A DNA stretch of 64,000 nt from Bacteroidota bacterium (lineage in GTDB: Bacteria > Bacteroidota > Bacteroidia > Bacteroidales > UBA4417): positions 17,277 to 81,276 of the forward strand of contig JAIFMH010000086.1 of assembly GCA_020048595.1 (NCBI GenBank). The letters are read 5' to 3'. Below are positions 30,844 to 64,000 of the stretch, in pieces. Made by a program: the position numbers and the translations under genes. The notes below the pieces were generated by a model, which saw only the letters and a list, made by a program, of their open reading frames with translations, was not told the origin of the DNA and did no database searches. How positions within the stretch are numbered: the first letter of the stretch is position 1; every line of letters starts with the position of its first letter.

Positions 30844-32433
30844 CTAATTCGCTGCCTCTACTTTGTACAAACGCTTGATTTGTACCCTTGTCATTTCGCG
30901 AAGTTCTTCCACACTTTTGTTTATTTTAAGCTCTTTTTTCAATTTATCCAGTCGCAATTTCAAATCATCAGTCACACTGTCGAATTCCTGAATTCCAGAA
31001 AGGTTGTGCAATTCATTCGGATCTGTTTTTAAATCATACAACTCCCATTTGTCCATATCGTAGTAGAAATGAATCAGTTTATAGCGGTCGGTGCGGATAC
31101 CATAATGTGGCTGAACATGATGCCAATAAGGGTATTCGTAATAATGATAATATACGGCATCTCGTAAAGGTGTCGTGGTTTTGCCTTCCATAACCGGCAA
31201 AAAGCTTTTTCCCTGAATATCATCAGGAATTGAAACTCCTGCAGCATCGAGCAAGGTTGGGGCATAATCGATATTCAGGAGCAAATCGTTGTTGATCGTT
31301 CCGGGTTTTATGTGTCCCGGATATCGAATCAAACAGGGCATATGAAAAGATTCTTCGTACATAAACCGTTTGTCGAACCAGCCGTGCTCACCGATATAAA
31401 ACCCTTGATCGGAAGTGTAAACTACAATTGTATTTTCCGCCAGGCCACTTTCATCTAAATAATCAAGTACTTGGCCAATGGCATCATCCGCAGCTTTTAC
31501 ACACCTCAGATAATCCTTGATAAAATGCTGGTATTTCCAGTCTTTGCGTTCTGCATCAGTCATCGTTGAATCGGGTGTCCAGAACTCTCCATCATTGTTC
31601 CCGTAGCTGTTCCATTTTTCCAGATCTTCAGGTGACAATCCTTCGGGGGCATGAATTTTTACATCTTTCCGGTTCATGTGCCCATCAATACGCATCCATG
31701 CCTCTTTGGCCGCTTCCCTTCCTTCATAATTGTCATCGAAAGTTGCAGGGTGAGGGATGGTTATATCGGCCAGGTAATTTTCATATCCGGGACCAGGATC
31801 CCATGGACGGTGAGGAGCTTTAAACTGATACATCAACATAAATGGTTTGGTTATATCTCTTCCGGTTTTTAACCAATTCAAGGCATCTTCCTTAATAACG
31901 GTGGTGGAGTATTTGCCTTTTTCCTCAATAATTTTTCCTCCCGTTTCCTCAAAAACCGGATCGAAATAAGTGCCTTGACCTTCTTTATTAAACAACACCT
32001 TATAATAATCGAATCCGGTTGGCGAGGTTCCCAAATGCCACTTGCCAATAACTGCTGTTTCGTAACCGGCCTTCTGTAAAAGTTTGGGGAAAGTTTGCTG
32101 TGAACCATCGAAATCGCCTCCACCTTCATTTTTATAGAAACCATTTATATGGCTGTATTTTCCGGTAAGGATACAAGCCCGGGAAGGGCCGCAAATTGAA
32201 TTGGTACAGAAGAAGTTATTGAACCGAACTCCTTCGTTCGCAATCCGGTCGATATTGGGAGTAGGGGCAACTTTTGCTAAATATCTGCCATACGCACTTA
32301 TTGCTGAAAGTGCATGATCGTCGGTCATGATAAAAAGAATGTTTGGCCTTTTTAATTCCCTCTCTTTAAGTTGACAGCCTGGCAATATCAGCGAGACGAG
32401 AAGGACAGGTGCAATAAAGTTTTCTTTTTTCAT
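30844..32433 (-). CDS. Formylglycine-dependent sulfatase, lipoprotein
   Basis: 529 aa with lipobox LILPGCQ. Motifs: PNILFIMTDDHA, NSICGPSRACILTGKY, TSDQGF. Confidence 0.9.
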   Translation of the reverse strand: MKKENFIAPVLLVSLILPGCQLKERELKRPNILFIMTDDHALSAISAYGRYLAKVAPTPNIDRIANEGVRFNNFFCTNSICGPSRACILTGKYSHINGFYKNEGGGDFDGSQQTFPKLLQKAGYETAVIGKWHLGTSPTGFDYYKVLFNKEGQGTYFDPVFEETGGKIIEEKGKYSTTVIKEDALNWLKTGRDITKPFMLMYQFKAPHRPWDPGPGYENYLADITIPHPATFDDNYEGREAAKEAWMRIDGHMNRKDVKIHAPEGLSPEDLEKWNSYGNNDGEFWTPDSTMTDAERKDWKYQHFIKDYLRCVKAADDAIGQVLDYLDESGLAENTIVVYTSDQGFYIGEHGWFDKRFMYEESFHMPCLIRYPGHIKPGTINNDLLLNIDYAPTLLDAAGVSIPDDIQGKSFLPVMEGKTTTPLRDAVYYHYYEYPYWHHVQPHYGIRTDRYKLIHFYYDMDKWELYDLKTDPNELHNLSGIQEFDSVTDDLKLRLDKLKKELKINKSVEELREMTRVQIKRLYKVEAAN

Positions 32434-32451: not shown

Positions 32452-34707
32452 CTATTCGTATTTGGGGATTTCAGCATTCTTTCCCCACTCTTTGTTTGGA
32501 AGTTCATCCACTATAAGTTCGAGGCTTCCTCCTTCCATTATTTGTTTATGTGAAATAAATGGCGAATCTATTTCTTTGCCATTAATAAGCGCTTTTTGGA
32601 TGTATTTTTTTGTTCGGCTGGCGCCTTTGGCCAAAACAGTAAACTTCTTACCGTTTGTAAGATTGATGGTTGTTTCTTCAAATACCGGACTAGTGATGGT
32701 ATAAAATGGCAGACCTGGTGTAACAGGATACAGGCCCATTGAGGTAAACACGACAAATGCGGTCATCCCGCCACCATCTTCATCTCCGGGTATTCCGAAA
32801 ATATTGTCTTTATACCAAACGTCAAGTAAGAAGCGCGTTCTCTGTTGAGTCTTCCACGGCGCTCCAAAATAATTGTATAAATAAGGAATATGGAAAGAAG
32901 GTTCGTTCCCCATCGAAAATTGCCCAACCATGCCGGTTGAATTAGAACCATTAACATAGAAATCATTTTTTTTCATACCAAGCGGTTCCCTAAAAAGCTG
33001 ATCTAAGCGATTTTCAGCAGCTTTTTTACCTCCCAGCATTTGGGTTAAACCTTCAATATCCTGCTGTACATCCCAGGCGTAAGTCCAGCCATTGTTTTCA
33101 TCGTAATATTCCCGATAGCCTTTTCCACCTGCTGATTTAGGGTCAATATCTATCCAGTTCCCTTTATCATCTTTGGGCATAAATAATCGATGTTTCGGGT
33201 CCCACAGATTTTTGTGGTCCAGTCCTTTTTTTACAAATTGGTTATAATCATCGCTTTTACCTAAATCTTTGGCTAATTCAGCCAGGGTCCAAAAATCATA
33301 ACTAATCCCTAAAGTTACCGAAACCGGCTGGCGTTTTTCAAAACCGTCCATTTGTGGCTCAGTCTCTTTTTCGCCCGGATGAAGTGCGGGAAAGAATCCA
33401 TTTTCATGGTAGAAATCGTCAATGGGACGTCGGGGTGTTCCCTGCCGCCATGGAATAAAAGTCCCTTCCATTAGGTTTTTCTTAATCCCTTCGTAGGCTT
33501 TTTCAACGTTGTAATCTTTTAATCCTTTCCGGTAACCATCAATAAAGATGGCCGACGAGTGATAGGAATTCATACACATGTGATTGCCATGAACCTGCGG
33601 AAATGTCGGCATCCAGCCACTCTGCTCATACATTAGGGTGTACGAATTCAACATGTCATTTTCCATTTGAGGGTTGAGAATGGTGCGCAAAGGATGTTGG
33701 GCGCGATACGTATCCCAAATCCAATCGTCAACAAAAAAGGCACGGTTACTTTCATGTACTTTACCGTCATATCCGCTGAAATATTTACCTCCTTCATTAA
33801 TGTCGACCATCCGTTCGTAAGTGCGGTATAATGAAGTATAAAAAGTTCTTCTTTGCGCTTCTGTTCCACCTTTGACTTCAATCTGGTTGATTACTTTTTC
33901 CCATTCTTTCTTTCCCGATACTGTCAAATCGTCAAAACTGACATTTGTCAATTCTTTATCAAAATTGATTTTTGCCTGTTCAGGACTAATATACGAAACT
34001 GCATATTTCACCAATACTGATGTCGGGTCAGTATTGGAAAATGAAACAGAACATTTCTCATTCTGAATATTTACAGAAGCATCTTTAATCAAATTATTGT
34101 TGTTATCTCGCAGTTCACCATAAACATATACTGTAACTGTCATTTTAACCGGATTTAATCCTCTTGAAGTTTCGCCTACATTCTCTTCAAATGTGAAAGT
34201 TCCCTGTTTATTAAAGGCGCTTTTCATTTCACCAGAGCCCTTTATTAGCAAGTTCTTCGTGCCGGTATCCGGAAAGTCGATTTTATAAATGGCACATTTT
34301 TCACCGGGAGCAAAACTAACCCTGATCTCATCATCAATTAAATATGTAGAATACAACCAGGGATTCACCACTTCCAAATCATGGTCGATATTCATTTTTT
34401 GATTCCATGATGAATTGGTGATTTCGCCAATAGTTACCTTCATCTGAAGGATACCGGCTTGCCGGTGCGAAGTGACCTGCAAAGGAAAAGCTTCCACCTG
34501 ATCGGAGAGGTAATCCTGTTTTACAGGGAACATCCGGATCATTTGGTTTGGCAAATGCATGGTTGGATAGGTTGGCACAAGAAACTGAGCTACATTCCCA
34601 ATGGTTGGGTCGATGTATTTGGTGAAATCTTCCTGTGCAAAAGACGTTATACTGAAATAAAAAGATAGTAGAACAAAAGCTGTAAATTTTTTGATTATTC
34701 GATTCAT
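32452..34707 (-). CDS. GH92-like exo-alpha-mannosidase (divergent)
   Basis: 751 aa with a signal peptide. The N-terminus YIDPTIGN.. parallels the GH92 N-domain. The C-terminal block, GNEPSFHIPYLYNYFGAPWKTQQRTRFLL...GIPGDEDGGGMTAFVVFTSMGLYPVTPG, parallels the GH92 catalytic-region signature as I recall it. Confidence 0.7.
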   Translation of the reverse strand: MNRIIKKFTAFVLLSFYFSITSFAQEDFTKYIDPTIGNVAQFLVPTYPTMHLPNQMIRMFPVKQDYLSDQVEAFPLQVTSHRQAGILQMKVTIGEITNSSWNQKMNIDHDLEVVNPWLYSTYLIDDEIRVSFAPGEKCAIYKIDFPDTGTKNLLIKGSGEMKSAFNKQGTFTFEENVGETSRGLNPVKMTVTVYVYGELRDNNNNLIKDASVNIQNEKCSVSFSNTDPTSVLVKYAVSYISPEQAKINFDKELTNVSFDDLTVSGKKEWEKVINQIEVKGGTEAQRRTFYTSLYRTYERMVDINEGGKYFSGYDGKVHESNRAFFVDDWIWDTYRAQHPLRTILNPQMENDMLNSYTLMYEQSGWMPTFPQVHGNHMCMNSYHSSAIFIDGYRKGLKDYNVEKAYEGIKKNLMEGTFIPWRQGTPRRPIDDFYHENGFFPALHPGEKETEPQMDGFEKRQPVSVTLGISYDFWTLAELAKDLGKSDDYNQFVKKGLDHKNLWDPKHRLFMPKDDKGNWIDIDPKSAGGKGYREYYDENNGWTYAWDVQQDIEGLTQMLGGKKAAENRLDQLFREPLGMKKNDFYVNGSNSTGMVGQFSMGNEPSFHIPYLYNYFGAPWKTQQRTRFLLDVWYKDNIFGIPGDEDGGGMTAFVVFTSMGLYPVTPGLPFYTITSPVFEETTINLTNGKKFTVLAKGASRTKKYIQKALINGKEIDSPFISHKQIMEGGSLELIVDELPNKEWGKNAEIPKYE

Positions 34708-34741: not shown

Positions 34742-36061
34742 TTAAAAGGTTTGTTGAGCATAGTTTCCCATTTCCTTTTCCCAATCCTTTAGCAGGGTTT
34801 TGAACTTTTTTATCATAACCGGATTTTCATCCTTTAAATTTGTTGTTTCACCAAGATCTTTAGCCAAATCAAAAAGATATTCCTTTTCTTTTATTTTCAG
34901 GTATTTCCAATTTTCCATGCGCACTACCCACTGATTCTGGAACCTCCAAAATAAGGGGCGCTTTTTCATTTCTTTTTCAGAAAAAAGAAGTTTCGAAAAA
35001 TCCTCTCCATCGAACCTGACCTTGTTAGAAATTCCGGCTACGTTAAGTAATGTAGGTAAAACATCCATACTTATAACTGGGTCATCAGCAATTTTACCGG
35101 GTTTAATTTTTCCGGGATACCAGGCAATTGCAGGAACCCTGTGTCCACCTTCCCAAAGTGAACTTTTAAATCCGTTAAGCGCACCGTTGTTTCCCATGCT
35201 TGTGGCTCCATTGTCGGAGCAAAAAAACACAAATGTATTTTTGTCCAGGTTCAATTCCTTCAATTTCTCAAGCACACGACCAATATTTTCGTCCATAATT
35301 TCTACCATTTCTTTGTAGGCCTGTTTTTTGTCGGAACGGGAACCAAGCATTTCGAAATTTAATCCAGGCAATCGATCCGCTTTGTCATTCCGCCCCTGAT
35401 AAGGAAAATGTGGAGCTTCATGGGGTAAATACAGTAAAAATGGTTTGTTTTTATTGGATTCAATAAACTTCAGTGCCTGGTTCGTAATTAAATCGGTTAC
35501 ATAACCTTCATCGTAGCACGTATCGGTATTGTGCCACCAATCATAAATGCCGATTCCATCTCGATGAGAGATATAATCCACATTGCCACTTACATAGCCA
35601 TAAAATTCATTGAATCCATGATGTGTCGGATTAAATTCAGGTTGGTAGCCCAAATGCCATTTTCCAAAAATACCAGTCTGATAACCTGATTTTTGGAAAA
35701 TTTCAGCCATTGTTACTTCAGAATCAGCAATACCATAGATCCTTTTATCCATTTGGGCATTAATTACCCCTTCCAATCCGACGCGCTGCTGGTAGTTACC
35801 AGTCAGTAATGAGGCCCTGGTTGGAGTGCAGACGGCTCCGTTGGAGTGGTAGTCGGTAAACTTTATTCCATCGGCTGCCATTTTATCCAAAACCGGTGTT
35901 TTAATGGATTTACTTCCATAACAGCCAATGTCTCCATACCCCATGTCATCGGCCATAATCAGAATAATATTTGGTTTTTCGGCAAGTTCTTTTGCTGCAG
36001 CGGCAGAAGTAAAACAACTCAAGGCAATTGAAACGGACAAAACATTAACCGGACTCTTCAT
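34742..36061 (-). CDS. Formylglycine-dependent sulfatase
   Basis: The ORF track gives 34742..36172, but that start overlaps the upstream gene by 56 nt. The ATG at 36061 (MKSPVNVLSVSIALSCFTSAAAA) gives a normal signal peptide. Motifs: PNIILIMADDMGYGD, GAVCTPTRASLLTGNY, CSDNGA. Confidence 0.88.
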   Translation of the reverse strand: MKSPVNVLSVSIALSCFTSAAAAKELAEKPNIILIMADDMGYGDIGCYGSKSIKTPVLDKMAADGIKFTDYHSNGAVCTPTRASLLTGNYQQRVGLEGVINAQMDKRIYGIADSEVTMAEIFQKSGYQTGIFGKWHLGYQPEFNPTHHGFNEFYGYVSGNVDYISHRDGIGIYDWWHNTDTCYDEGYVTDLITNQALKFIESNKNKPFLLYLPHEAPHFPYQGRNDKADRLPGLNFEMLGSRSDKKQAYKEMVEIMDENIGRVLEKLKELNLDKNTFVFFCSDNGATSMGNNGALNGFKSSLWEGGHRVPAIAWYPGKIKPGKIADDPVISMDVLPTLLNVAGISNKVRFDGEDFSKLLFSEKEMKKRPLFWRFQNQWVVRMENWKYLKIKEKEYLFDLAKDLGETTNLKDENPVMIKKFKTLLKDWEKEMGNYAQQTF

Positions 36062-36116
36062 TTCTTTTTTGTTTGTTAGTATTGGTTGTAAACTGCTTAC
36101 AAGCAAATAGAATATT

Positions 36117-44335: not shown

Positions 44336-45631
44336 TTATTTTCTTTCCGGCATCTTTTTCGAAAAAGGAATTTCGCCACGCAGCATTTTACCTGCCATGC
44401 CCGTTAACCACAAATAATGATCGGATGGAACCTCTTTTTCAATAGGAACAAAAACACTTTTTCCAACCGGAACGTTATGCGCACATTTCATGATGGCAGT
44501 ACCTTCATCAATTTCATCGAACATGGCAACATAGATCATTTCAGCTCCACTCTCAAGTGCGCCGGCAATTTGCTTCCAGTAAAATTCACCTTTGTTCCTT
44601 GGAATTTTGTCTGATTTGTCATCTTTCATGTTGTGCCAGGAGAAGCCGGGATAAACAGTTGGGGCATAGGATTTCCCATTTTCTTTGCACCATTTCACAT
44701 CATCAATAATATTCTCCTGACGGTAAGCTTCGTAATTTCCCTCGTTATAACGCCCGACCAACCAGGGATGAACAACGTCTGCCTGTTTGATGGCATCATG
44801 CAAACGTGGGTCGCCTTTTGTATCCGATCCAAGGGTTCTCCAGCGCGACGGGATTCCCAAATGAATGGAACAACCGCCATATATAGGATCGTTTTTGAAA
44901 AAATCCATGATATCAAATATTTCAGGGATGTGACCAGATTCCCTTGTTCCGGCGCTTATTCCCCAAAAAGCAACTAAAGGTTTATTATTATGAAAAAGGT
45001 AGGTTGTTTTCTTCCCCTGGTTTGTGAGTTTCAGGTCGTCAACCAGATGTTTCCAATCCGCTATCACCAGTTTGTATTTGCTGTCATCCATACTGCCAAT
45101 ATCGTACATCAAACAAATAGCAATTCCATATTTAGTAGCAGCTTTTATAGCCGAAGCCATGACTTTGTCGTTATGATTTAGTCTTTCCTTGCTTGTAAGA
45201 ACAGAGAAGAACCTTTGCATAAACACGCCATCAATCCCGTACTGTTTCATCCATTTAAAATGCAAATCAACGGTACTTTCATCGTAAGAGCTAAAAACAT
45301 AGGCAGGAGAACCATCCGCGAACTTAAACGGTGTTTTGTATTTCACCTTGTACTCATCCATTTCAGGCCAGTTATCGAATTTACAACTTCCGTCTTCGAA
45401 TTTGTTATTTAAAGCGTAGTGGGTCCAACCCCTTTGGGCGCCATCGCCCTCACAATTAAACCAGCCCTGATAACCAGCCATAACAAGCCCTTTATAACTC
45501 ATGTATTTACTTTTTGGAGCATGTTTAGTTTGGGCTGAAATATGAATACTGAATAAGAGCATAAATAGTCCTGTTAAAAACAGTTTGTCCTTCATGGTGT
45601 ATGTTTTGAGAATAAAAGTACCTGTGGGCAT
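44336..45631 (-). CDS. Exported TIM-barrel glycosidase candidate, GH99/GH71-clan-like (family uncertain)
   Basis: 431 aa; the likely true start is the ATG at 45595 (MKDKLFLTGLFMLLFS..). Motifs: VMAGYQGWF, HFKWMKQYGIDGVFMQRF, and the C-terminal VAMFDEIDEGTAI, reminiscent of the NEWHEGT block of GH99-type barrels. Confidence 0.4.
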   Translation of the reverse strand: MPTGTFILKTYTMKDKLFLTGLFMLLFSIHISAQTKHAPKSKYMSYKGLVMAGYQGWFNCEGDGAQRGWTHYALNNKFEDGSCKFDNWPEMDEYKVKYKTPFKFADGSPAYVFSSYDESTVDLHFKWMKQYGIDGVFMQRFFSVLTSKERLNHNDKVMASAIKAATKYGIAICLMYDIGSMDDSKYKLVIADWKHLVDDLKLTNQGKKTTYLFHNNKPLVAFWGISAGTRESGHIPEIFDIMDFFKNDPIYGGCSIHLGIPSRWRTLGSDTKGDPRLHDAIKQADVVHPWLVGRYNEGNYEAYRQENIIDDVKWCKENGKSYAPTVYPGFSWHNMKDDKSDKIPRNKGEFYWKQIAGALESGAEMIYVAMFDEIDEGTAIMKCAHNVPVGKSVFVPIEKEVPSDHYLWLTGMAGKMLRGEIPFSKKMPERK

Positions 45632-45680: not shown

Positions 45681-46787
45681 TTACGATTTTAAACCGGCAT
45701 TACAATTTATACGCAAATATTCAAAGCTTTTTAACAGCTCCGATTGCTGAAGTTCAATATCAAAATTTTTCTGGGTTATTCCTGCAGGAGGATTTTTGAT
45801 TTCCTGTGGCTTTCCATTTTTTGCAAGATTTAGAAAAACTATAATGCCAGCTGCAGAGAGATTTGGGAAACCTTTCCAGAATTCGGGCTTTAAAAAAGGA
45901 GTCGGTCGTGCCGAGTTTGAAATGGTCTCCACATGAAGTGGGACTCCCGGGCATAATTCAGCCATCGTTTTTGAATAAAGTGGGTAGTCCAATATTCCTT
46001 CGCCGATAGCCATTCCCTGAAATGTGGCACCTTCCTGGGTTTCCCAAATGGCAACATCGCGCACGCTGGTACAAACTATGGTTGACCCCAATATCTTTAA
46101 TGCCTCCATAGGATCTTCCATTGCCCAGAGTGCATTTGCCGGGTCGAATAGTGAACCGCAAATGTCAGTTCCGGTTTCATTAATAAGAGCCAACAATTCT
46201 TCTGAACGAAGGTCGCCGGCATGGTTTTCAAAAGCAAATTTAACCCCGGCATCTAAAGCTGCCTGGCGAAGCGACTTCATTACTTTTATCACAGCTTCCA
46301 TGTGTGCTTCAATTCCGCCATCCATATAGCGGTCATCAATACCACCGATACGTACACCAACTATTGGAGAACCAACAGCTGCTGCAACGCGAATCCCCTC
46401 ACTCAATAAAGTCCCGGCATTTCCATAATTTGAAGAGAAACTTTTAGATTTTTCGCTGATGCTTCCGGCTCCGATATAAATACTGATATCGTTATCTCTG
46501 GCCATTTTACTTAAAAGGGAAAGATATTCAGGCTCTAGACTATCAAGCGGTTGAAGGGTATTCAGTAAAACTGAATCGAGCTTTTGTTTTATGGCATATT
46601 CTGTGAGTTGTTGAGCATTAAAATTCATCCCCCGAAGAGAATGATTACACAATCCCAACGGAATTCTTGCGGATTCGGATGGCTTATTTTTCAAAAATTC
46701 AATTGAAGCAAAAGCGGGAAATGATTGCATTGCTAACGCACCCAATCCGGCTATTTTTGTAAAATCACGTCGTTTCATAGGGAACAT
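45681..46787 (-). CDS. Xylose-isomerase-like TIM-barrel protein (sugar phosphate isomerase/epimerase family) with Tat signal
   Basis: 368 aa. The N-terminus (MFP)MKRRDFTKIAGLGALAMQSFPAFA is Tat-like. The body has ..VKFAFENHAGD.. and barrel-type periodicity typical of AP_endonuc_2 / xylose isomerase-like proteins. Confidence 0.6.
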   Translation of the reverse strand: MFPMKRRDFTKIAGLGALAMQSFPAFASIEFLKNKPSESARIPLGLCNHSLRGMNFNAQQLTEYAIKQKLDSVLLNTLQPLDSLEPEYLSLLSKMARDNDISIYIGAGSISEKSKSFSSNYGNAGTLLSEGIRVAAAVGSPIVGVRIGGIDDRYMDGGIEAHMEAVIKVMKSLRQAALDAGVKFAFENHAGDLRSEELLALINETGTDICGSLFDPANALWAMEDPMEALKILGSTIVCTSVRDVAIWETQEGATFQGMAIGEGILDYPLYSKTMAELCPGVPLHVETISNSARPTPFLKPEFWKGFPNLSAAGIIVFLNLAKNGKPQEIKNPPAGITQKNFDIELQQSELLKSFEYLRINCNAGLKS

Positions 46788-52974: not shown

Positions 52975-54348
52975 TTATTTATTTTTTCTGTTATCAGTCT
53001 TGTTCTTTTTCTTGCCATCAGTCTTATCTTGTTTGTTTTTTAAATCGCCCATTGGAGTTTTCATTTCAGCGCGCCATTTTTCGTATTTTAGCTTCAATTC
53101 GTTTGTTTTCTCCGGATTTTGAGCTGACAGATCATTGTTTTCGCTGATATCTTTCTCAAGATCATACAATTCCAATTTCGCTTTTTTGTCAAAGACCAGC
53201 TTCCATTTACCTGCTCTAACAGCCCATCTGTTTTCTGATCCATCCCAAAACAGCTCTTCATGCAGCGGTTGCTTTAATTTACCCTTAATTGCCGGAAGCA
53301 TACTTTTACCATCATATATCCGGTCGGCTGGTAGTTTGATATCCAGAACTGCACAAATGGTAGGCATAATATCCAGAGAGATAACAGGTTCCTTACACAC
53401 CGAAGGTTTTATTTTTCCGGGCCAGCTCATGACAAATGGCACACGCAGTCCGCCTTCATAAACACTTTGTTTAAAGTCTCTGAGCGGCAGGTTGTTGGCC
53501 GATGTAGCTTTAGAGCCACCATTATCAGAGAAATAAAAAATAATGGTATTTTCATAAACCCCTTCACTTTTGAGTGTCTTAATAACTTCACCTACTGCAA
53601 TATCCATACGGTATATCATTGCCATTTGAATATCGCGATTCCTGTTTCCGGTATTGAATCTCTTGATATCTTCTTCGGGTGCCTGCAATGGAGCATGAAC
53701 CGCATTAAACGGGAGGTACAGGAAGAAAGGTGACTTCTTGTCTGCATTTGTCTTGATAAATGAACAGGCTTCTTTCGCCAGAATATCGGTCAGATAGCCT
53801 TCATCGCTTACAGGAGTGAAATTCCGAACAATACATTCGTAATTTTTTTCATCAGGACAGGTGAAATTGTAATAATCATGTCCGCCGTGCCCCAGAAATC
53901 CATAAAAATCCTGAAATCCTCTATTGAGCGGATGATAAGCTTTTTCAAGTCCTAAATGCCATTTCCCGAAGATGCCTGTGCGGTAACCTTCTTTTTTAAG
54001 CACATCTGCCAGGGTTAACTCACTCAAAGGCATCCCTGCCCTGGAATCGTTGGCCGTGTAGAAACCAAATCGTTGCTGATAACGTCCGGTTAACAAACCT
54101 GCCCGCGTTGGCGCGCAAACGTAAGCGCTGGCGTAACCATTCGTAAAAACCACTCCGCTTGCTGCCAATTTATCGATTGATGGAGTTGAAATGGTAGAAG
54201 GTGAACGTTGAAAGCCGACATCCGCATTGCCCTGATCATCAGCCAGAATAATCACGATGTTGGGTTTTGTCAGATTTTGAGCAGTAAGTCCCATTGTCAT
54301 TAAGACCAATGAAGGAAACACAACTGAAGTTTTCAAAATGCTTTTCAT
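52975..54348 (-). CDS. Formylglycine-dependent sulfatase with Lys/Asn-rich C-terminal tail
   Basis: 457 aa. Motifs: PNIVIILADDQGNAD, AYVCAPTRAGLLTGRY, FSDNGG. The tail is ..KNKQDKTDGKKKNKTDNRKNK. Confidence 0.9.
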   Translation of the reverse strand: MKSILKTSVVFPSLVLMTMGLTAQNLTKPNIVIILADDQGNADVGFQRSPSTISTPSIDKLAASGVVFTNGYASAYVCAPTRAGLLTGRYQQRFGFYTANDSRAGMPLSELTLADVLKKEGYRTGIFGKWHLGLEKAYHPLNRGFQDFYGFLGHGGHDYYNFTCPDEKNYECIVRNFTPVSDEGYLTDILAKEACSFIKTNADKKSPFFLYLPFNAVHAPLQAPEEDIKRFNTGNRNRDIQMAMIYRMDIAVGEVIKTLKSEGVYENTIIFYFSDNGGSKATSANNLPLRDFKQSVYEGGLRVPFVMSWPGKIKPSVCKEPVISLDIMPTICAVLDIKLPADRIYDGKSMLPAIKGKLKQPLHEELFWDGSENRWAVRAGKWKLVFDKKAKLELYDLEKDISENNDLSAQNPEKTNELKLKYEKWRAEMKTPMGDLKNKQDKTDGKKKNKTDNRKNK

Positions 54349-54389: not shown

Positions 54390-56633
54390 TTAACGATTCT
54401 GGATTACTAACTTTTGGTTATAAACGTGCCCGTCAAGTATTGCGGAAACGATATAGACTCCAGGACTGAAAGAATTATAGCTAAACACGCAGGTTTTCGA
54501 CCGGGGATCACTTTGGACAACCAGTTTTCCATCAATGCTGTAAACAGAGCATTGGTCGATATTTTTAGCTGAAGAAACGATTTCTAATCCGGTTTTGGCG
54601 TAAATTATTTTGATTTGATTATCGATGGATCGATTTTCTGCAGCGGTATTTGTTTCAGGATAAAAAGCTGCAAGGGTATAAACACTGTTGCTTGAAATTG
54701 TATAAAGTGGATTCGCAGCACTTACTTTGGTACTGTTGCTCCAAACATCAAGCACAGTGCCATCTCCCCTTCGGATTTGAAGATTATCAATGTAAAAGTT
54801 GTATTTGCCTGTCTTTTTAAGAATAATACTAAATTTATTTACAACACCCGGAGCTTCACTACCCATGCCAATAACCCTATGTTCCCAAACTCCGGCACCT
54901 CCCAATGGTGCGGGTGCTGTCATTTGAACCCGTCCAAATTGGTCAACCCCTCTTTTGGCGCTAAAGTATTTTCCTGTACCAAAAAACGGCGTTACATAAA
55001 AACCATCTGTTTTACTCCCTACCTCAGCTTTAATATCAAAATGCAAATAATCATCCGGCAATAACTTAAATCCAGTACCCGAAATTTGAATAACCGGCTC
55101 GGGATTACTTGCACCGGAAACGTAATCGGCAGTAACCTTTAATACTGCATTACCTGGAGCGGGATTTATTGGAGTTGCAAGTTTTGGAGCCAGATGTGTG
55201 ATGGCTACACCGATAGATTCTCTCCATTTTTCAAGTTTAGCCAGCAAATCTGATGTAACGACTGAATTACTCATATTCACATTTGTACTTTCAGTAATAT
55301 CAGCCTGTATGGCGAATAATTCGCTGCGATCAATGTATCTCGACATTTTCCATTGGTCAGTGCGAATTACATCGTGGTCTCTCCAAACCCAGTAATATTC
55401 GCGATCACCTGATTGAGCATTGGTTTTCATCTCCTGTAAAAATGAACTGCCATCAATTTCACCAATTACTGAGGTGGATATTCCTGATATTTCCATAAAA
55501 GTGGGCAGAACATCAAGATATCCAACCATTGGTTTAAAGACTTTTGGCCCAACGAATTCCCCTGCCGGCCAGCGTATTACGGCTGGTGAATGCACTCCAC
55601 CTTCTAAAGTGGAGTGTTTATTTCCTCTAAAAGGCAATCCGCTGCCGTCAGGTGTTGCCCCATTATCGGCGAAAAACAGAACTACCGTATTATTTGCAAG
55701 GTTGTTGTCTTCCAGATATTTCATCATCTCGCCCACTTTGTCATCCAGGTTGATTAGCATAGCCGAATACAGCACCTGACGTTCCGAAGTACTTAATGTT
55801 CCGGTAATGCTAAATATGGTATTATCGCCGGTTAGCTGAGCATACATGTTATTCATTTCCGGAGTATCACCATCATTATACAGTTTGTAATACTCTTTCC
55901 AGGTACGAAGCGGACCTCCGGTGGCTTGCAGGATTGAAGCAGGAACACGCTGAAGATCAATATCTTTTACATGAAGCGGAGTGTGGATAATATTCAGGGG
56001 CACATAAGCTAAAAATTGATTTGTCTTGTTTTGTTCAATAAATTCCAGGGCATATCTTGTCAATAAATCTGTTGAATATTCAAATTCTGTATTTATCTCA
56101 GTTTTGTCATGATACCAGTTGGGGCTCGTTGGTTTATTGGCCCAAACTTTCGTATAATAGTCACATCCACCGCCATAAAAACCTATAAACCTGTCAAATC
56201 CATAATCGTTTACATGAGGGAGTGTTGGGTAAAATTCGGGAGCATTGCCATTGTGCCATTTACCAAAAATTCCGGTTTTGTAACCGTTTGCTTGAAACAC
56301 ACTGCCCATGGTCGGAATGCTGGTAGCCAGTTGTCCGTCAGTATTTGGTCCTTGTCCGGTTCTTAACGGATTCAAACCGGTAAGTAAGCCCGCACGTGTA
56401 GGGCTACAGACAGGGCAGGTCATAAAATTACCAAATTCAATGCCTTGATTGATAAGCTTATCGATGTTTGGCGTAGGTGTTTTACCGCCATGACAGCTCA
56501 AGTCGCCATAACCTAAATCATCGGCCAGGATAATCAAAAAATTAGGCCGGGTAGTTTTTTGAGCCAATGTTGCCGTTGAAACTGAACTAAAAGAAACCAA
56601 AAACAAGATGTTGCGGCAATAGATTGTTCTCAT
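54390..56633 (-). CDS. Three-part sulfatase: S1 sulfatase domain, beta-sandwich (CBM-like) region and T9SS C-terminal sorting domain
   Basis: 747 aa. The N-terminal sulfatase has PNFLIILADDLGYGDL, TCPVCSPTRAGLLTG and FADNGA. A non-sulfatase region of about 180 aa follows. The last 75 aa or so (..IKIIYAKTGLEIVSS..CSVYSIDGKLVVQSD..FSPGVYIVSAILDGHVYNQKLVIQNR) fit the Por/T9SS type-A CTD pattern. Confidence 0.8.
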   Translation of the reverse strand: MRTIYCRNILFLVSFSSVSTATLAQKTTRPNFLIILADDLGYGDLSCHGGKTPTPNIDKLINQGIEFGNFMTCPVCSPTRAGLLTGLNPLRTGQGPNTDGQLATSIPTMGSVFQANGYKTGIFGKWHNGNAPEFYPTLPHVNDYGFDRFIGFYGGGCDYYTKVWANKPTSPNWYHDKTEINTEFEYSTDLLTRYALEFIEQNKTNQFLAYVPLNIIHTPLHVKDIDLQRVPASILQATGGPLRTWKEYYKLYNDGDTPEMNNMYAQLTGDNTIFSITGTLSTSERQVLYSAMLINLDDKVGEMMKYLEDNNLANNTVVLFFADNGATPDGSGLPFRGNKHSTLEGGVHSPAVIRWPAGEFVGPKVFKPMVGYLDVLPTFMEISGISTSVIGEIDGSSFLQEMKTNAQSGDREYYWVWRDHDVIRTDQWKMSRYIDRSELFAIQADITESTNVNMSNSVVTSDLLAKLEKWRESIGVAITHLAPKLATPINPAPGNAVLKVTADYVSGASNPEPVIQISGTGFKLLPDDYLHFDIKAEVGSKTDGFYVTPFFGTGKYFSAKRGVDQFGRVQMTAPAPLGGAGVWEHRVIGMGSEAPGVVNKFSIILKKTGKYNFYIDNLQIRRGDGTVLDVWSNSTKVSAANPLYTISSNSVYTLAAFYPETNTAAENRSIDNQIKIIYAKTGLEIVSSAKNIDQCSVYSIDGKLVVQSDPRSKTCVFSYNSFSPGVYIVSAILDGHVYNQKLVIQNR

Positions 56634-56715: not shown

Positions 56716-58335
56716 TCATAGTTCTGTAACCTCCAATTCTTTGATATATGGTGTTTTTGTCTTGATCATCCAATCTTTCAGTGTGGATTTCAAATCACTG
56801 ACTACCTTTTCGTAGTTGGATTTTTCGGGATTTGTCCCGATCAGGTTATTCATTTCCAGGGGATCGGATTTGAGATTGTATAAAGCGCTAACCGTTTTTT
56901 GCTTTTTATCAGACATCTGGAGATAGACAATCATTTTCCAGTCGCCTTTGCGTAACATGAACGGACCTCCGTTATTTATCTGGCCCCAGACAGAAACCGC
57001 ATAATCAACGGGATCTGCTTTGCCGTCAACTAATTTCCGCAAACTTCGTCCGTCATTTTCAGGAATTTTCATTCCTGTGTAATCTAAAATCGATGCAAAA
57101 ATATCATGGTGCGAAACCGGCGCATTAACTTTTTTTCCGGCAGGTATTGTGCCAGGCAAACGCATGATTAAAGGAATATGAACCGAACCTTCGTACATTT
57201 TCATTTTACTGTTTAGACCATGATCCCCCATCATTTCGCCGTGATCACTAACAAAAACCACCAATGTATTTTCGGTTAATCCTTTTCGGTCCAGCTCGTC
57301 GAGCAATTTTCCCACCCACTCATCAACCTGAGTAACCATGCCATAATAAACCTGCTTCATTTGCTGCACCATTTCCGGATTCTGAAAACGCAGGTCGAAT
57401 GATGTATTATTTCTCTGGTAAGGAGCATTTTGCAAATTGTCGTTTATGCTGGCGGGCACTGACAATAGACCAGGGTTGTATAAATCTGCATATTTTTTAG
57501 GAACGACATAAGGTGGATGAGGAGGACCAAATGAACAGGTGAGCGAAAATGATTTCCCGGGTTTCATCTTTTTTAAGGCTTCCAGAGCCTCGTGTCCTTC
57601 GTAGGCAGCCAAGGAACCATCGGCCAGACCATTAAATATTCCGAAATTCTGTGCCTGAGATACTTCCGATCGGTTGTCCTTCTTTCTTCCATTTTCACTG
57701 GTTGAAACTTCTTCCTTTTGTTCCCCATACCTTCCATCAATAGGAAGGGGAATATACGGACGAAGGCTCATCTTATCAATTACTTCATTGGCATTTGCAT
57801 CTCTTGCCGGTATGCCAAGTTCATCGAGGTATTTTCTGAAACCATCGACAGTTGAGGGGACATTTGCCATCTTTGATTTGCCGGTTGTCTTCACTACATT
57901 GTTGTATTTTGAGGCAAACTTATAAGGAGAATGCCATTTCCCATAATATTCAGTGTGATATCCATTATCAGATAGAATCTGATCGAAAGTTGGAACATTC
58001 GGAATACTATCACTATCAACATCATTATTTCCGAGTACTTTGGTATTAAAAATAGTACGTCCTGTGAGAATGGAGGATCGCGCCGGCACACATACCGGGC
58101 ATGAAGAATAGGCGTTTGTAAACTGAACGCCTCCTTTTGCAAGCCGGTCGATGTTGGGCGTTTTTATTTCCAAATTCCCGGCACATCTCAGGGCATCCCA
58201 ACGTTGCTGATCGGTCATAATAAACAGGACATTGGTTTTCTCATTTACCTGACCAAAGGCTATAAAAGAGGAACAAAAAATAAAACCGTTTAGTAGTACG
58301 ACGGATTTATTAAAACAAGGGATGAGCTTTTTCAT
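56716..58335 (-). CDS. Formylglycine-dependent sulfatase (DQQ-type paralog group); first structural gene after the regulator
   Basis: 539 aa. Motifs: NVLFIMTDQQRWDALRC, SCPVCVPARSSILTGR, VSDHGEMMGDHGL, DPLEMNNLIGTNP. Confidence 0.9.
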   Translation of the reverse strand: MKKLIPCFNKSVVLLNGFIFCSSFIAFGQVNEKTNVLFIMTDQQRWDALRCAGNLEIKTPNIDRLAKGGVQFTNAYSSCPVCVPARSSILTGRTIFNTKVLGNNDVDSDSIPNVPTFDQILSDNGYHTEYYGKWHSPYKFASKYNNVVKTTGKSKMANVPSTVDGFRKYLDELGIPARDANANEVIDKMSLRPYIPLPIDGRYGEQKEEVSTSENGRKKDNRSEVSQAQNFGIFNGLADGSLAAYEGHEALEALKKMKPGKSFSLTCSFGPPHPPYVVPKKYADLYNPGLLSVPASINDNLQNAPYQRNNTSFDLRFQNPEMVQQMKQVYYGMVTQVDEWVGKLLDELDRKGLTENTLVVFVSDHGEMMGDHGLNSKMKMYEGSVHIPLIMRLPGTIPAGKKVNAPVSHHDIFASILDYTGMKIPENDGRSLRKLVDGKADPVDYAVSVWGQINNGGPFMLRKGDWKMIVYLQMSDKKQKTVSALYNLKSDPLEMNNLIGTNPEKSNYEKVVSDLKSTLKDWMIKTKTPYIKELEVTEL

Positions 58336-58535: not shown

Positions 58536-61118
58536 TTAACATTTTACTAATTCATTAAATGACCTTTTATATTCCTCATTATACAAGAGATGATATTCCT
58601 TTATAAATTTTTCGTAAGTCAGCTTTGCAAGGCTATGCTTTCCTAGGCAATATTCAGCCCTGCATTTCAGAATCATAGCTTCTTCATTACTTCGGTCGAA
58701 ATTAAAAATACAGTCCGCCAAATGAACTATGAATTCAGCTTCAGTTTTTAAATCGCATTTTTCAGCAAAAACCACAAGGGTATCAACAATTTTATCGGAA
58801 ACATCTGACTTGAAATCATCCAGCCATTCGTACCCGCAGTTCATTAAAAAGGCTCCTTTCCCGGTTATTTCTATTAATCTGCTGACATTTTGTTTGGTGA
58901 GATTTGATTTAGAACTTGTAACCTGTAAAAATTCAGCATAATCACATTTAACGTCCTTGTTGCTGTATATAATTTTCCAATACCCGGTATTTTTTGTCAA
59001 TTCAATGGCCCCGATTTCAGCCAGTATTGCTTTGAGTTTTGCAATATTCACGGCCCTGTTGTTTCGTGCACTTAATTCTGATTTATCGAACCACAGATAT
59101 TCTGATAATTTTTCTGAAGATATTCCTTTGTTATTTTTGTGCGTGTAAAGTAGAATGAGTAGAAAAAGTTCTTTTAAAAGAGGTGAGAACTTATTTGTAA
59201 TATCCTCTTTATGCTGGCTAAGAACCTGAAATCCACCGAATAGAACCATCTGATATTTTGGCTTTTCATTTTGTAGCATAGAAACAGATTCTTCAAATTC
59301 TTTATCATTGGCCAATTCATTTGCGGTGACTGCTTCTGATGATTTCCTTTTAGCGTTTCTTTTCCGAATCATAAACCAGGTTAAAAATCCAGATAAAATC
59401 ACCAATGCAATCGAAAGATAGATGAACGATAAATTCTTTTTTGTTTTAACAATCGAGAGATTGCTGTCGGATTTATTTGGCGGATAATCTATCGAATAGA
59501 TACCAACCTGCGTAGACGAAGTGTCTTTTGCAAAGGAAGTATAGGCAAAAAGTTTGTTTTGAAAAGCAAAATAAAACAGACCTGCATTCGATTTGATATC
59601 CGTAAACTTAAAAGGGATCGTATTTCCAACGACATCAACTTTAGGATTGTCAATATTTCCCTTAATCAGTTGTAAAGTTCCTTCAAACTTCATTTTTTCA
59701 AATACCAATGCGTAAAAATCCCGATTTTTCTTATCGATCCACATGTTGTTGACTACACACATATCATCAATCAATCGGGGAATTTCAAATTTTTTGAATA
59801 ATGTCTGATTTTTAATGGAATATCCCATTAAATCGAAATAACTATGTGGATTAACCATCTGACTTCCAGACAAACTACCATAACCCCCTAAAAGATAAAG
59901 TGTATCATTCAAAGAACCAAGACCTGCCAAATACCTGGGCGGGAAAATATTTTTGTTTGAAGGTAATACCTGCCATTCATTTCTCGTTAAATCAAGCTTT
60001 CTTATTTCATTATTGTAGGTATGCATGCCATAACCGCCGAATATGTATATTGAATTCTCCGCAGGATTAAAATAGCTGTTATGATGCCTGGACTTTGTTT
60101 CTGATTTAGTAGAAATGCCAATTTCATTCCATTCGTCCGTCAATATATCAAGACAAAACAATAGTTTACCATCTATCTCGTAACAGTATATTTTTTTATC
60201 CAGGCTATTAAATATGGCTTTAAAATCATTGCTTATTATAAAATTTGGTTTATTCCGGTATTTTACTGTTCGAACATTATCTTCCTGAGCCGAATAAACA
60301 GACAATTCTTTATTTCCGACCAGAAATATTTTACCATTTTCGGTGTCAGGAGCAATCAATACAATTCCTTCAATTTCATTTTGATATTTGGATTCCCATG
60401 CCTGATGATTGTTCTTTAACCACGAAGGATTTTTAACACTGGCCACTTTCTTGCTTAAGCTATTTCCCGCTATGTTACCCTTAACTTCATCCAACGGCCA
60501 ATGATATTCTAATTTTCCCTTTTCAGAAATCCGTATCTCCTTAATACTCATTAAGGGAACATCTGATGATTTAAAATTTTCATAATCATTCGCTCCAAAT
60601 ATGATCTTAAAGTAATCATTATTTTTAAATCCGATGTTTTCCTGAACGTAAAAAGTATCAGGTGTATAAAAAATTAAACGATCTTCACTCAATAAAAACT
60701 TAACACGTAAATTAATCCAACTATCAATAGCGTTATAGGGTGAACCAACCTTAATAATAGAATTGTTTTTCCCAATGACCAGGTTTAAAAATATTGTAGG
60801 TGTAGGTGTTATTATAAGATCAACATTGTTATTCTCTTTGGAAATAACTCTAAAAACATAACCAAATAACCCTGAATAATCGTTTGGTTTTAAAAGATCA
60901 ATTCTATAGTCAAACGAAATTTCAAATTCGTCACGAAAATTTAATAATTGATCAGGAGATAAATCTAATTCTGTTCTTTTATCCAGAACAACATCGTGGC
61001 TTTGAAATTTTAACCCATAAGTTTGAGAGAAAGCTGCATCATTTATAATGATAAAAACAAAAAGTAATATAAGCCGAAAAATAGGAGCAGATCTGCTTGA
61101 TTTTAATGTAGCTATCAT
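58536..61118 (-). CDS. Membrane-spanning one-component regulator candidate: exported LamG-like and Kelch-like sensor, one TM helix, cytoplasmic SARP-type winged helix and BTAD-like domain
   Basis: 860 aa. A signal/anchor spans aa 12-30. Residues about 33-200 look like a jelly-roll (LamG-like). Residues about 250-540 carry Kelch-like repeats (IYIFGGYG, LYLLGGYG). The TM helix is aa 563-584 (LSFIYLSIALVILSGFLTWFMI), followed by RKRNAKRK (positive-inside). Residues 622-705, YQMVLFGGFQVLSQHKEDITNKFSPLLKELFLLILLY..GISSEKLSEYLWFD..ARNNRAVNIAKLKAIL, match the SARP/OmpR-type wHTH pattern. Residues 710-860 are helical and BTAD-like (..GAFLMNCGYEWLDDF..). Confidence 0.6.
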   Translation of the reverse strand: MIATLKSSRSAPIFRLILLFVFIIINDAAFSQTYGLKFQSHDVVLDKRTELDLSPDQLLNFRDEFEISFDYRIDLLKPNDYSGLFGYVFRVISKENNNVDLIITPTPTIFLNLVIGKNNSIIKVGSPYNAIDSWINLRVKFLLSEDRLIFYTPDTFYVQENIGFKNNDYFKIIFGANDYENFKSSDVPLMSIKEIRISEKGKLEYHWPLDEVKGNIAGNSLSKKVASVKNPSWLKNNHQAWESKYQNEIEGIVLIAPDTENGKIFLVGNKELSVYSAQEDNVRTVKYRNKPNFIISNDFKAIFNSLDKKIYCYEIDGKLLFCLDILTDEWNEIGISTKSETKSRHHNSYFNPAENSIYIFGGYGMHTYNNEIRKLDLTRNEWQVLPSNKNIFPPRYLAGLGSLNDTLYLLGGYGSLSGSQMVNPHSYFDLMGYSIKNQTLFKKFEIPRLIDDMCVVNNMWIDKKNRDFYALVFEKMKFEGTLQLIKGNIDNPKVDVVGNTIPFKFTDIKSNAGLFYFAFQNKLFAYTSFAKDTSSTQVGIYSIDYPPNKSDSNLSIVKTKKNLSFIYLSIALVILSGFLTWFMIRKRNAKRKSSEAVTANELANDKEFEESVSMLQNEKPKYQMVLFGGFQVLSQHKEDITNKFSPLLKELFLLILLYTHKNNKGISSEKLSEYLWFDKSELSARNNRAVNIAKLKAILAEIGAIELTKNTGYWKIIYSNKDVKCDYAEFLQVTSSKSNLTKQNVSRLIEITGKGAFLMNCGYEWLDDFKSDVSDKIVDTLVVFAEKCDLKTEAEFIVHLADCIFNFDRSNEEAMILKCRAEYCLGKHSLAKLTYEKFIKEYHLLYNEEYKRSFNELVKC

Positions 61119-62949: not shown

Positions 62950-64000
62950 CTATCCCTTCCTTACAACCAAATGACTCAGCCCCGGATCATTCAGCAATCG
63001 TTCCATTTCTGATTGGATAATGTCCTGTACATCCTGTTTTATCTGGAGATAGTTGTGTTGCACCATCGTATTGTCCAGTTTGCGAATGACTTGGATATCC
63101 TTGTAACTATCCTGTTCTTTCTTCAGTGCTGCATGGTCGTTCAATATCTCGCAATGGAATGTTTTCAGGTCAATTTTACAGTCCGGATCATCAGCCACCA
63201 TACCTACAAACTCCCCGGAACTTAGTCCTGATATTTTAGAAGGTGGCACAGCTGATTCCAATTGTTTGGAGCGGCTGATGGAAGTATCGACGCTGTTAAT
63301 GGAAAGGCTTTCCCGGTCCTGCATAATCTTTCCGAAACGCTCGGATAATTGTTTGGCTGTTTCTCCGTTTACCTGACCGCTAACGATGTTGCCGGTAATG
63401 TTCATGATCACATCAGCCTGTTCCCGGCCATAATCTTTGCGAAGCTGACTAAAGTCCTGAATACCCAGACAGGTTGCCACCCTGTTGCTTCTTGCCGTGG
63501 CAATCAAGCTATCCATATTATTCAGATAAATAGTGGGGAATTCATCAAAAATAAGACTGCTCTTTTGTTTGCCTTTCTTGTTCACCAGCTTCACCAGACG
63601 GGTCACATACAATGATAAAACGGCACCGTAAATTTGGATCTTCTGCGGATTATTCCCCATACAAACAATCTTTGGCTCATCAGGATTATTGATGTCCAGC
63701 GTAAAGTCGTTCCCCGATAAAACGTAGTACAATTGCGGTGATGAAAGCCTGGCCATGGCCACTTTGGCGGAAGCAATCTGGCCTTCCAGTTGCTCCATCA
63801 CATCATTAAGGTAAGCGTTCACAAAAGGATTGATCAGTACCTCAATTTCCTTCTCCGTTCGGAGCAAAGTAAACAGGCTGTCATAGTCCACCTGCATTAG
63901 CTCAATGACGTGGGGCAGGGTGCAAAATTCACCATCCTTATACTTTTTTAAATACCAGATTACAGCCGTTAAAAAATTGATTGGCGACTCAACAAAGAAA
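62950..64000 (-). CDS. traG: Conjugative type IV coupling protein (TraG/VirD4/TraD-like; Bacteroides CTn TraG / MobC type), N-terminus beyond the window
   Basis: The frame stays open upstream of the tracked Met to position 63999 (..FFVESPINFLTAVIWYLKKYKDGEFCTLPHVIELMQVDY..). The body has ..SSLIFDEFPTIYL.. (Walker-B-like), ..ATARSNRVATCLGIQDFSQLRKDYG.. and ..NIVSGQV.., typical of T4CP C-terminal halves. Confidence 0.75.
   Translation of the reverse strand, partial: FFVESPINFLTAVIWYLKKYKDGEFCTLPHVIELMQVDYDSLFTLLRTEKEIEVLINPFVNAYLNDVMEQLEGQIASAKVAMARLSSPQLYYVLSGNDFTLDINNPDEPKIVCMGNNPQKIQIYGAVLSLYVTRLVKLVNKKGKQKSSLIFDEFPTIYLNNMDSLIATARSNRVATCLGIQDFSQLRKDYGREQADVIMNITGNIVSGQVNGETAKQLSERFGKIMQDRESLSINSVDTSISRSKQLESAVPPSKISGLSSGEFVGMVADDPDCKIDLKTFHCEILNDHAALKKEQDSYKDIQVIRKLDNTMVQHNYLQIKQDVQDIIQSEMERLLNDPGLSHLVVRKG

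Follow-up and report, generated by a model that had tools for sequence, protein, structure and literature searches.

A candidate type IX-exported S1 sulfatase with a private beta-sandwich in a Bacteroidota locus resembling those for sulfated mannan

A described counterpart of the system considered here is that by which Polaribacter degrades the C6-sulfated alpha-1,3-mannan of diatoms in four steps (2026, PMC13063451). The first two steps fall to a single protein, PbSulf1-GH195, in which an S1_51 endo-sulfatase is fused to a GH99-like endo-mannanase and which, having a type IX secretion system (T9SS) domain, is predicted to be extracellular; the third is due to PbGH92_1, a periplasmic member of glycoside hydrolase (GH) family 92 with a signal of the signal peptidase I (SPI) type, and the fourth to PbSulf2, an S1_11 mannose-6-sulfate sulfatase with a signal peptidase II (SPII) anchor (PMC13063451). 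That PbSulf1 acts first on the polymer was shown, its location outside the cell being a prediction from the T9SS domain (PMC13063451). The polysaccharide utilization locus (PUL) in question has five GH92 genes, two GH99-like genes, GH88, GH3 and many sulfatases (PMC13063451 Table S3), and most of its other enzymes were inactive on pure mannan (PMC13063451). At the surface of Bacteroides thetaiotaomicron there is also BT1636 (S1_20), an exo-acting 3S-Gal sulfatase directed at host mucin O-glycans (PMC10154612). Here we consider a 64-kb stretch of a Bacteroidota contig (JAIFMH010000086.1; the window, in what follows, is the whole of that stretch) and within it one gene, at 54390..56633 on the minus strand, whose product appears to join an S1 sulfatase to a tag for the same secretion system. 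It is quite probable, judging from the tail and from its relatives, that this protein is T9SS cargo, and on balance we favour the fuller reading that it is the exported sulfatase of a PUL for sulfated mannan or glucuronomannan.

The gene and its parts are as follows.

54390..56633, minus strand: whole gene, a 747-amino-acid (aa) S1 sulfatase with an accessory beta-sandwich and a T9SS type-A C-terminal domain (CTD)-like tail; ATG start, stop codon 54390-54392.
56562..56633, minus strand: predicted SPI-type signal peptide, aa 1-24, with cleavage at TLA/QK (A24/Q25) and no lipobox, from direct reading and a heuristic.
55209..56546, minus strand: S1 sulfatase catalytic domain, N- and C-terminal subdomains, aa 30-475 (PF00884, PF16347).
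56394..56408, minus strand: formylglycine motif C76-S-P-T-R80, of the Cys type, from direct reading.
55782..55940, minus strand: family-specific helical insertion, approximately aa 232-284 (about 53 aa), missing from the nearest solved sulfatases (split alignment to PDB sequences; AlphaFold2 helices at 232-275).
55146..55208, minus strand: ordered, conserved connector between catalytic domain and beta-sandwich, aa 476-496 (predicted local distance difference test score, pLDDT, 87-95).
54663..55145, minus strand: accessory jelly-roll-like beta-sandwich, aa 497-657, all-beta and of high confidence (AlphaFold2).
54615..54662, minus strand: flexible linker, aa 658-673, the region in which tail removal would be expected (pLDDT <50 at aa 662-671).
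54393..54614, minus strand: T9SS type-A CTD-like tail, aa 674-747 (TIGR04183, AlphaFold2).

The order of domains is thus signal peptide, S1 sulfatase, beta-sandwich and seven-strand C-terminal domain. Five independent JGI metagenome contigs yield the identical protein, each with the same genes around it, and ENA, JGI and Logan assemblies contain orthologs of 745-754 aa with 84-94% identity, that of 94% being on a contig of 184.7 kb; JGI samples 3300033562, 3300033514, 3300033509 and 3300033508 carry the contig. The identical open reading frame on five contigs and the full-length orthologs show that the gene is no frameshift or assembly fusion, and the first of these grounds rules out a gene-fusion or assembly artefact. 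At the N-terminus heuristic reading finds a charged n-region, a hydrophobic core and then TLA/QK, with AlphaFold2 pLDDT <50 at aa 1-3 and 15-26. An N-terminal Gln left after SPI cleavage is the 'Q-rule' of Bacteroidota. A lipoprotein was ruled out, there being no lipobox Cys after the hydrophobic core.

The case for export rests chiefly on the last 75 or so residues, which the earlier note, made from the sequence, had matched to the pattern of a type-A CTD. Both of the strings on which it relied, VYSIDGKLV and GVYIVSAIL, are present, and the tag itself is recovered by the curated model TIGR04183, with 27.3 bits for the whole protein against a cutoff of 23 (E=2.6e-6), 32 bits for the isolated tail and matches at E<=1 for nine of nine ortholog tails. 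The secondary matches of the tail are all to proteins that depend on T9SS, namely to the tails of an M36 peptidase, of a surface endonuclease and of TapA, and comparison by hhalign with the canonical tails of 1,040-aa relatives gave 81% probability and E=1.3e-5 over the last 54 columns. Seven strands are predicted for aa 674-744 with pLDDT of 78-92, at the extreme C-terminus. The late-strand motifs SVYSIDGKLV, PGVYIV and NQKLVI are in place, with their D-G-K-L-V, G-x-Y and K-L-V-I elements kept in orthologs as divergent as 26% in the tail. There was no match to the type-B model TIGR04131, and ortholog P0016 has a precomputed match to the second curated type-A model, PF18962. Taken together the comparisons point to a genuine, if divergent, CTD of type A, with one of the two curated models leaving the call borderline. 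A separate feature of the tail is a pair of cysteines, Cys695 being invariant and Cys715 present in eight of nine orthologs, on neighbouring predicted strands, where they could form a disulfide; we know of no description of a disulfide in type-A CTDs.

The distribution of the tail among relatives is equally telling. In a distance tree built on the shared region, the 17 tail-bearing sequences, which are 64-95% identical to the query, form one exclusive neighbour-joining clade, and so the tail appears to have been retained throughout a diverged clade; the tail-less relatives are all at or below 49% identity and none falls inside it. At the position of the tail, sister members of the tail-bearing clade have CTDs that are both strong and canonical. 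A scan of GTDB genomes gave, as the best among the matches listed, a tail-less Chitinophagaceae homolog at 42% identity. The contigs of the relatives are rich in other Por_Secre_tail proteins; no protein of the 64-kb window other than the target has a tail that matches a T9SS model.

That the enzyme belongs to the S1 sulfatases and has a CSPTR motif, as the earlier note stated, is borne out. PF00884 matches aa 30-385 (E=6e-49, 167.3 bits against a threshold of 25), the Pfam SGSH_C subdomain extends to about aa 470, and in 99 homologs P78 and R80 of the motif are invariant. So too in the family alignment are D38, D39, K125, H127, H217, D323, N324 and K339, which we take to be the catalytic and Ca-binding positions of S1 sulfatases (Asp-Asp, Lys-x-His, His, Asp-Asn, Lys). 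With the formylglycine motif present and these positions invariant, the enzyme looks catalytically competent. The formylglycine precursor itself is switched among members of the tail-bearing clade: CSPTR is found in the query and in the five orthologs nearest to it, SSPTR in the other 11 of the 17, which are 59-77% identical (among relatives P0006-P0017). Sulfatases of the Ser type need an anSME-type maturase, and the switch may follow the oxygen lifestyle of the host. No FGE or anSME maturation gene was seen in the 64-kb window; near relative P0010 there is a PF03781 gene.

With which sulfatases does the enzyme belong? Its best PDB matches are S1_19 structures, 6prm and 6b0j (E=1.9e-54; 6prm is exo-acting, 6b0j/6bia endo-acting), followed by a Pedobacter sulfatase (7stt), S1_20 (7all) and S1_16 (9fo1), all at 26-29% identity, and Foldseek places the S1_19 structures at E~5e-33 with template-modelling scores normalized to the target of about 0.78-0.80. 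The sequence alignment to PDB entries is split, into aa 26-231 and 285-471, on either side of the helical insertion. With 28-29% identity over that split alignment, against E=5e-99 to the same PDB entries for the neighbouring sulfatase at 52975-54348, the target must be a far more distant relative of S1_19, and it probably belongs to an S1 subfamily of its own. Membership of S1_51 was rejected: the S1_51 structure 9FVT, which is that of the endo-6S-alpha-1,3-mannan sulfatase OpSulf1, lies outside the best 60 PDB matches of the target (E > 4e-16), where a true ortholog gives E=3e-206, and the CTD-bearing S1_51 ortholog of a related locus (L089) is 22% identical to the target.

The AlphaFold2 model, from the 99-sequence alignment, has a mean pLDDT of 91.8 and a predicted template-modelling score (pTM) of 0.83, with high confidence for the catalytic domain, aa 30-475; a separate model of aa 485-747 agreed with it (pLDDT 90.3). 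A477, H480 and P493 of the connector are nearly invariant, and W583, D616 and N617 of the beta-sandwich wholly so, in the 99 homologs. Since the connector is ordered and the pTM high, the model suggests a beta-sandwich docked on the enzyme and a last domain that is flexibly tethered.

The earlier note had the middle region as about 180 aa of beta-strands with the periodicity of a carbohydrate-binding module (CBM). A beta-sandwich is indeed predicted there, of about 160 aa (aa 497-657), and it is the CBM assignment that fails. A phmmer search with the beta-sandwich by itself against 1.84 billion representatives found just 75 clusters, and in nearly all of them it stands at approximately residues 450-650 of proteins of 620-690 aa, directly after the sulfatase domain. 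Among eight matches of atypical length, six are clearly a sulfatase and then the domain (among these six is a 2,041-aa protein with the order PKD, sulfatase, domain, H-lectin, CTD), one is a sulfatase truncated at its N-terminus, one matches nothing in Pfam and one is a papain-type protease. Seventeen diverse copies compared with Pfam matched no family, those of CBMs included, a profile of the copies against PDB sequences gave nothing significant, and Foldseek with the aa 485-747 model returned generic jelly-roll and Ig arrangements only (GH85 Endo-A, GH2 glucuronidases; template-modelling scores 0.19-0.32), with no CBM family and no solved CTD among the best 50. Homologs of about 645 aa that have no tail span the query from aa 1 to about 640, beta-sandwich included; the domain is there in tail-less homologs of Flavobacterium and Chitinophagaceae with SPI signals, and in homologs from Planctomycetota, Verrucomicrobiota and Anaerolineae, groups that do not have T9SS. 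The idea of a CBM added for work outside the cell was rejected on these grounds, that it has no Pfam or PDB relative and that it occurs in tail-less and non-T9SS members. Because it is found almost only right after sulfatase domains and has no relatives in Pfam or PDB, the beta-sandwich is, on present comparisons, an accessory domain private to a family of sulfatases that is rare and uncharacterised.

The window amounts to a single large PUL, with nearly all genes in 1-61118 on the minus strand. The genes on which the argument draws are these.

8985-12212, minus strand: SusC-like, paired with the SusD-like gene 7129-8961.
7129-8961, minus strand: SusD-like, paired with the SusC-like gene 8985-12212.
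2512-7098: second SusC/D pair.
30844..32433, minus strand: S1_11-like sulfatase with a lipobox (LPGC), adjoining the GH92 gene (5G2V, E=8e-150).
32452..34707, minus strand: GH92 alpha-mannosidase (PF07971, E=3e-144), 62% identical to the GH92 beside relative P0012.
44336..45631, minus strand: GH99-like ('GH71/99-like') protein with an SPI signal, candidate endo-mannanase partner (PF16317, 33.8 bits).
52975..54348, minus strand: downstream neighbour, an S1_19-like sulfatase with an SPI signal (6prm, E=5e-99).
56716..58335, minus strand: upstream neighbour, a sulfatase of another subfamily.

In all there are 14 sulfatases, 13 complete and one partial and every one of the Cys type, together with GH38, GH92, GH99-like, GH115 and GH88 enzymes, a ManD-like dehydratase, a phosphomannose-isomerase-like cupin, a major facilitator superfamily transporter and oxidoreductases. 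No S1_51 ortholog is present in the window (best 28% identity), nor were families that cleave the backbones of carrageenan, agar, fucoidan or glycosaminoglycans (GAGs) found in it. The GH99-like protein is a remote relative of the GH99 structures 4ad1/5lyr (E=3e-6) and has 46%, 35% and 33% identity to GH99-like genes beside relatives of the target. Its best 120 matches are all stand-alone proteins of about 420 aa with 74-90% identity, and fusions of sulfatase, GH99-like domain and CTD in the manner of PbSulf1-GH195, which were sought through it, are absent from those 120. It is unusually conserved, its named matches coming from Prolixibacteraceae, Tenuifilaceae, Marinilabilia and Polaribacter, and the recently described GH195-like group may be where it belongs.

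The link to mannan comes mainly from the company kept by relatives. In locus L089 the order is a GH99-like protein with a CTD, an S1_51 sulfatase with a CTD (9FVT, E=3e-206), P0008, which is 75% identical to the target and has a canonical CTD, a GH99-like protein, a Big_2 protein with a CTD, and a sulfatase that is 65% identical to that at 36117-37670 of the window. It looks, by analogy, like an 'unfused' PbSulf1-GH195 system with an extra exported sulfatase, and the coexistence there of exported sulfatases of S1_51 and of the target family argues for different specificities. Within L089 5675-14762, T9SS tails are on four of five consecutive genes (GH99-like, S1_51, target-family sulfatase and Big_2). 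On another contig, of 88.8 kb, P0012 (with a CTD) is in the order sulfatase, P0012, GH92, SusC, SusD, the first sulfatase being 52% identical to the S1_11-like gene of the window. Approximately 30 kb from P0012 on the same contig is its tail-less paralog P0062, beside a GH99-like gene (46% identical to that of the window), a GH130 gene and many CBM proteins with CTDs. Because GH99-like, GH92, GH130 and OpSulf1-ortholog neighbours recur in three independent loci, the target family is, as far as gene content can tell, a recurrent component of mannan-type, T9SS-rich loci.

The scheme we have in mind takes its export route, formylglycine formation and tail removal from established T9SS biology and its substrate from context. 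The protein would pass the inner membrane by Sec, with signal peptidase I cutting at A24/Q25, and would fold in the periplasm, where an anSME or FGE, with its gene elsewhere in the genome, would turn Cys76 into formylglycine. Recognition of the C-terminal Ig-like domain by the T9SS would then take it through the outer membrane, the tail would be cut off in the flexible linker, and the protein would be released or attached to the surface. Outside the cell it would remove sulfate esters from a sulfated polymer of alpha-mannan or glucuronomannan type, or from large fragments of one, and this desulfation would help both the action of the GH99-like endo-mannanase and import by SusC/D. Degradation would be finished in the periplasm by GH92, GH38, GH115 and the remaining sulfatases, the S1_11 lipoprotein included.

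A number of observations weigh against one part or another of this scheme. For the tail, PF18962 gives 19 bits, below its gathering score of 27, the first-strand YPNP motif is missing, with IIYAKTG in its place, and a small hidden Markov model (HMM) made from the canonical tails found on the 1,040-aa relatives missed that of the target. For the surroundings, neither T9SS machinery genes (PorK/L/M/N, Sov/SprA, PorU/V) nor other CTD proteins are visible in the 64-kb window, and the locus offers no evident partner glycosidase outside the cell, since the GH99-like protein of 44336..45631 bears an SPI signal but not a CTD. The jelly-roll, occurring as it does in presumably periplasmic forms too, says nothing on polymer targeting. 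The nearest characterised sulfatases (S1_19, S1_16 and S1_20), at an identity of about 28%, act on 4- or 3-sulfates of galactose and not on mannose.

Does export at least tell that such an enzyme attacks within the chain? The earlier note had suggested endo action, which is not to be read from export, given that BT1636 is at the surface and exo-acting (PMC10154612) and that the nearest structures include both modes; for the target it is possible, and should be held tentatively. Somewhat unlikely, as we judge it, is the alternative that the protein is exported but exo-acting, trimming terminal sulfates at the surface for recognition or import of the glycan in the way of BT1636. The best PDB match by sequence is the exo-acting PsS1_19B (6prm), and a pocket could result if the 53-aa helical insertion and the jelly-roll, which is docked in the model, close over the active site; however, PfS1_19A (6b0j/6bia), which is endo-acting, is by fold just as good a match, and the only characterised T9SS sulfatase in a PUL of this kind is endo-acting.

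The substrate might also be some other sulfated glycan, a sulfated galactan, a GAG-like glycan or a heteropolymer with uronic acids. To the preference of the nearest characterised relatives for 4S or 3S on Gal or GalNAc can be added the S1_19-like paralog directly downstream, the indication of uronic acids from GH88, GH115 and the ManD-like gene, and the two SusC/D pairs and 14 sulfatases, with which more than one glycan is conceivable. Set against this are the GH99-like, GH92, GH130 and OpSulf1-ortholog neighbours of the three independent loci and a window in which the backbone-cleaving families for carrageenan, agar, fucoidan and GAGs were not found, and we regard a substrate other than mannan as unlikely.

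Least well does the notion survive that the sulfatase is periplasmic and its Ig-like domain degenerate or repurposed, as a spacer or oligomerisation module, and no longer a T9SS signal: the low PF18962 score, the lost N-terminal CTD motif, the blindness of the canonical-tail HMM, the window with neither T9SS genes nor other cargo and the many tail-less and presumably periplasmic family members could be cited for it, but a domain that passes the TIGR04183 cutoff, has secondary matches to T9SS tails only, follows a disordered linker at the very end of the protein, conserves its strand motifs across divergent orthologs and is confined to one clade whose sister members have strong canonical CTDs at the same position makes it improbable.

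Returning to the exported, mannan-directed sulfatase that we favour, one may go further and ask whether the tail-bearing clade is a new S1 subfamily of extracellular, polymer-active sulfatases in which jelly-roll and helical insertion form an extended cleft and a sulfate other than that at C6 is removed. We think this quite unlikely as a whole. If true, candidate sulfates would be the minor 4-O-sulfate reported on diatom mannan or sulfates on glucuronomannan, and the target would take the committed first step of degradation in loci without S1_51; in loci like L089 there would be a secreted multi-enzyme set with S1_51 and GH195-like endo-mannanases.

The placement of the other sulfatases of the locus bears on a further suggestion of the earlier note, namely that sulfatases are deployed at three locations. 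The lipoboxes it named are there, by the heuristic of a Cys after the hydrophobic core (1-1311 with FFASC, 13551-15164 with LSLTC and 30844-32433 with LPGC), and the remaining sulfatases of the window look like SPI proteins by the same heuristic. Three locations are then plausible, several enzymes appearing lipid-anchored and the rest SPI-like, with the qualification that the assignment is heuristic and that the lipoproteins are probably periplasm-facing, since the residues after their Cys (CSSKSS, CTAKKE and CQLKER) do not include the acidic ones seen on the SusD-like and DUF5627 lipoproteins of the locus.

Other features of the locus deserve record. There is no recognisable polysaccharide lyase in it, though GH88 is present; two signal-peptide proteins, 26333-27565 (410 aa) and 16606-17589 (327 aa), have no Pfam match at all, and one or other could, by analogy with the 'PLx' of the Polaribacter PUL, be a novel lyase. 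Twin-arginine-like signals are found on sugar enzymes of 'cytoplasmic type' at 22143-23480, 23513-24535 and 45681-46787, these signals belonging to a ManD-like dehydratase of the enolase superfamily (NRRTALK), an aldo-keto reductase (NRRKFIK) and a xylose-isomerase-like TIM barrel (KRRDFTK), which hints at periplasmic chemistry of sugars or sugar acids. Two genes for calcineurin-like metallophosphoesterases (27602-28690 and 29863-30687) are part of the PUL, and in a relatives' locus, L088 16154-21935, three metallophosphoesterase proteins are fused to CBM35, CBM6 or Big_2 and to T9SS tails; such proteins suggest an unrecognised esterase-type activity on the same glycan. The co-oriented array is headed by an 860-aa Kelch beta-propeller with an N-terminal hydrophobic segment (58536-61118), just upstream of the four-sulfatase block. 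The sulfatase at 34742-36172 is listed with a TTG start that overlaps the upstream sulfatase (36117-37670) by 56 nt, and its true start is probably an internal Met (MKSPVNVL...). Finally, mobilisation genes abut the PUL, with a TraG/TraD-like coupling protein of a type IV secretion system at 62950-63897 and a relaxase and MobC beyond the window (L001 1-3683), and a DDE transposase (12444-13349) lies inside it between a sulfatase and the SusC gene, which suggests a mobilisable element that carries the locus or adjoins it.

How much of this is new? In the literature searched no description of this lineage or architecture was found. Desulfation of polymer before import, which the earlier note had called unusual, has its T9SS precedent in PbSulf1-GH195 (PMC13063451), so that the concept is already published, and a surface sulfatase is known too in BT1636, albeit exo-acting. 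What is new is that a different and uncharacterised S1 lineage, with a jelly-roll of its own, carries the export tag, and in a locus without S1_51. Diatom sulfated mannans and glucuronomannans are large marine pools of carbon for which one minimal four-enzyme cascade has been worked out; here is a second, uncharacterised sulfatase family, tagged by prediction for export and tied by its genomic setting to sulfated-mannan loci. The target is thus a candidate for the extracellular desulfation activities still missing where sulfated mannans are more complex, and it might serve to tailor patterns of sulfation. The choice of sensible experiments also changes now that the 'extra' beta-sandwich is seen to belong to the family as such and not to be a CBM linked to secretion.

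The known systems with which the target bears comparison each share a part of it. The S1_19 carrageenan 4-sulfatases (endo-acting PfS1_19A, 6b0j/6bia; exo-acting PsS1_19B, 6prm/6psm; ZgCgsA, 9hh2) are its best matches in sequence and fold, whereas at 26-29% identity the target adds to them the helical insertion of about 53 aa, the beta-sandwich and the CTD. BT1636 is the precedent for a PUL sulfatase at the surface before import, and the related 7all is among the top fold matches, but it differs in being exo-acting and in having host mucin O-glycans as its target. With T9SS type-A CTD cargo, such as RgpB of P. gingivalis and the secreted glycanases of Flavobacteriia, the target shares a Sec signal and a tail of about 75 aa that is C-terminal in position, predicted to have seven Ig-like strands and equipped with the late-strand motifs; it differs in being without the YPNP-like motif of the first strand, in being below the Pfam threshold and in having a secretion that is predicted only. 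The tail-less members of about 645 aa (such as P0054, P0056 and P0062; 37-49% identity) have the same catalytic domain, helical insertion and jelly-roll, and differ in having SPI signals and no sorting tail, in being presumably periplasmic and in occurring also in phyla that do not have T9SS. PbSulf1-GH195 of Polaribacter and the target are both S1 sulfatases with a T9SS domain in a PUL rich in GH92, GH99-like enzymes and sulfatases, though they are of different S1 subfamilies and the target is not fused to a GH and has its private jelly-roll. The inventories of the two PULs resemble each other, with the pairing of GH92 and an S1_11 lipoprotein present in the window, where 30844..32433 is of the same family and signal type as PbSulf2.

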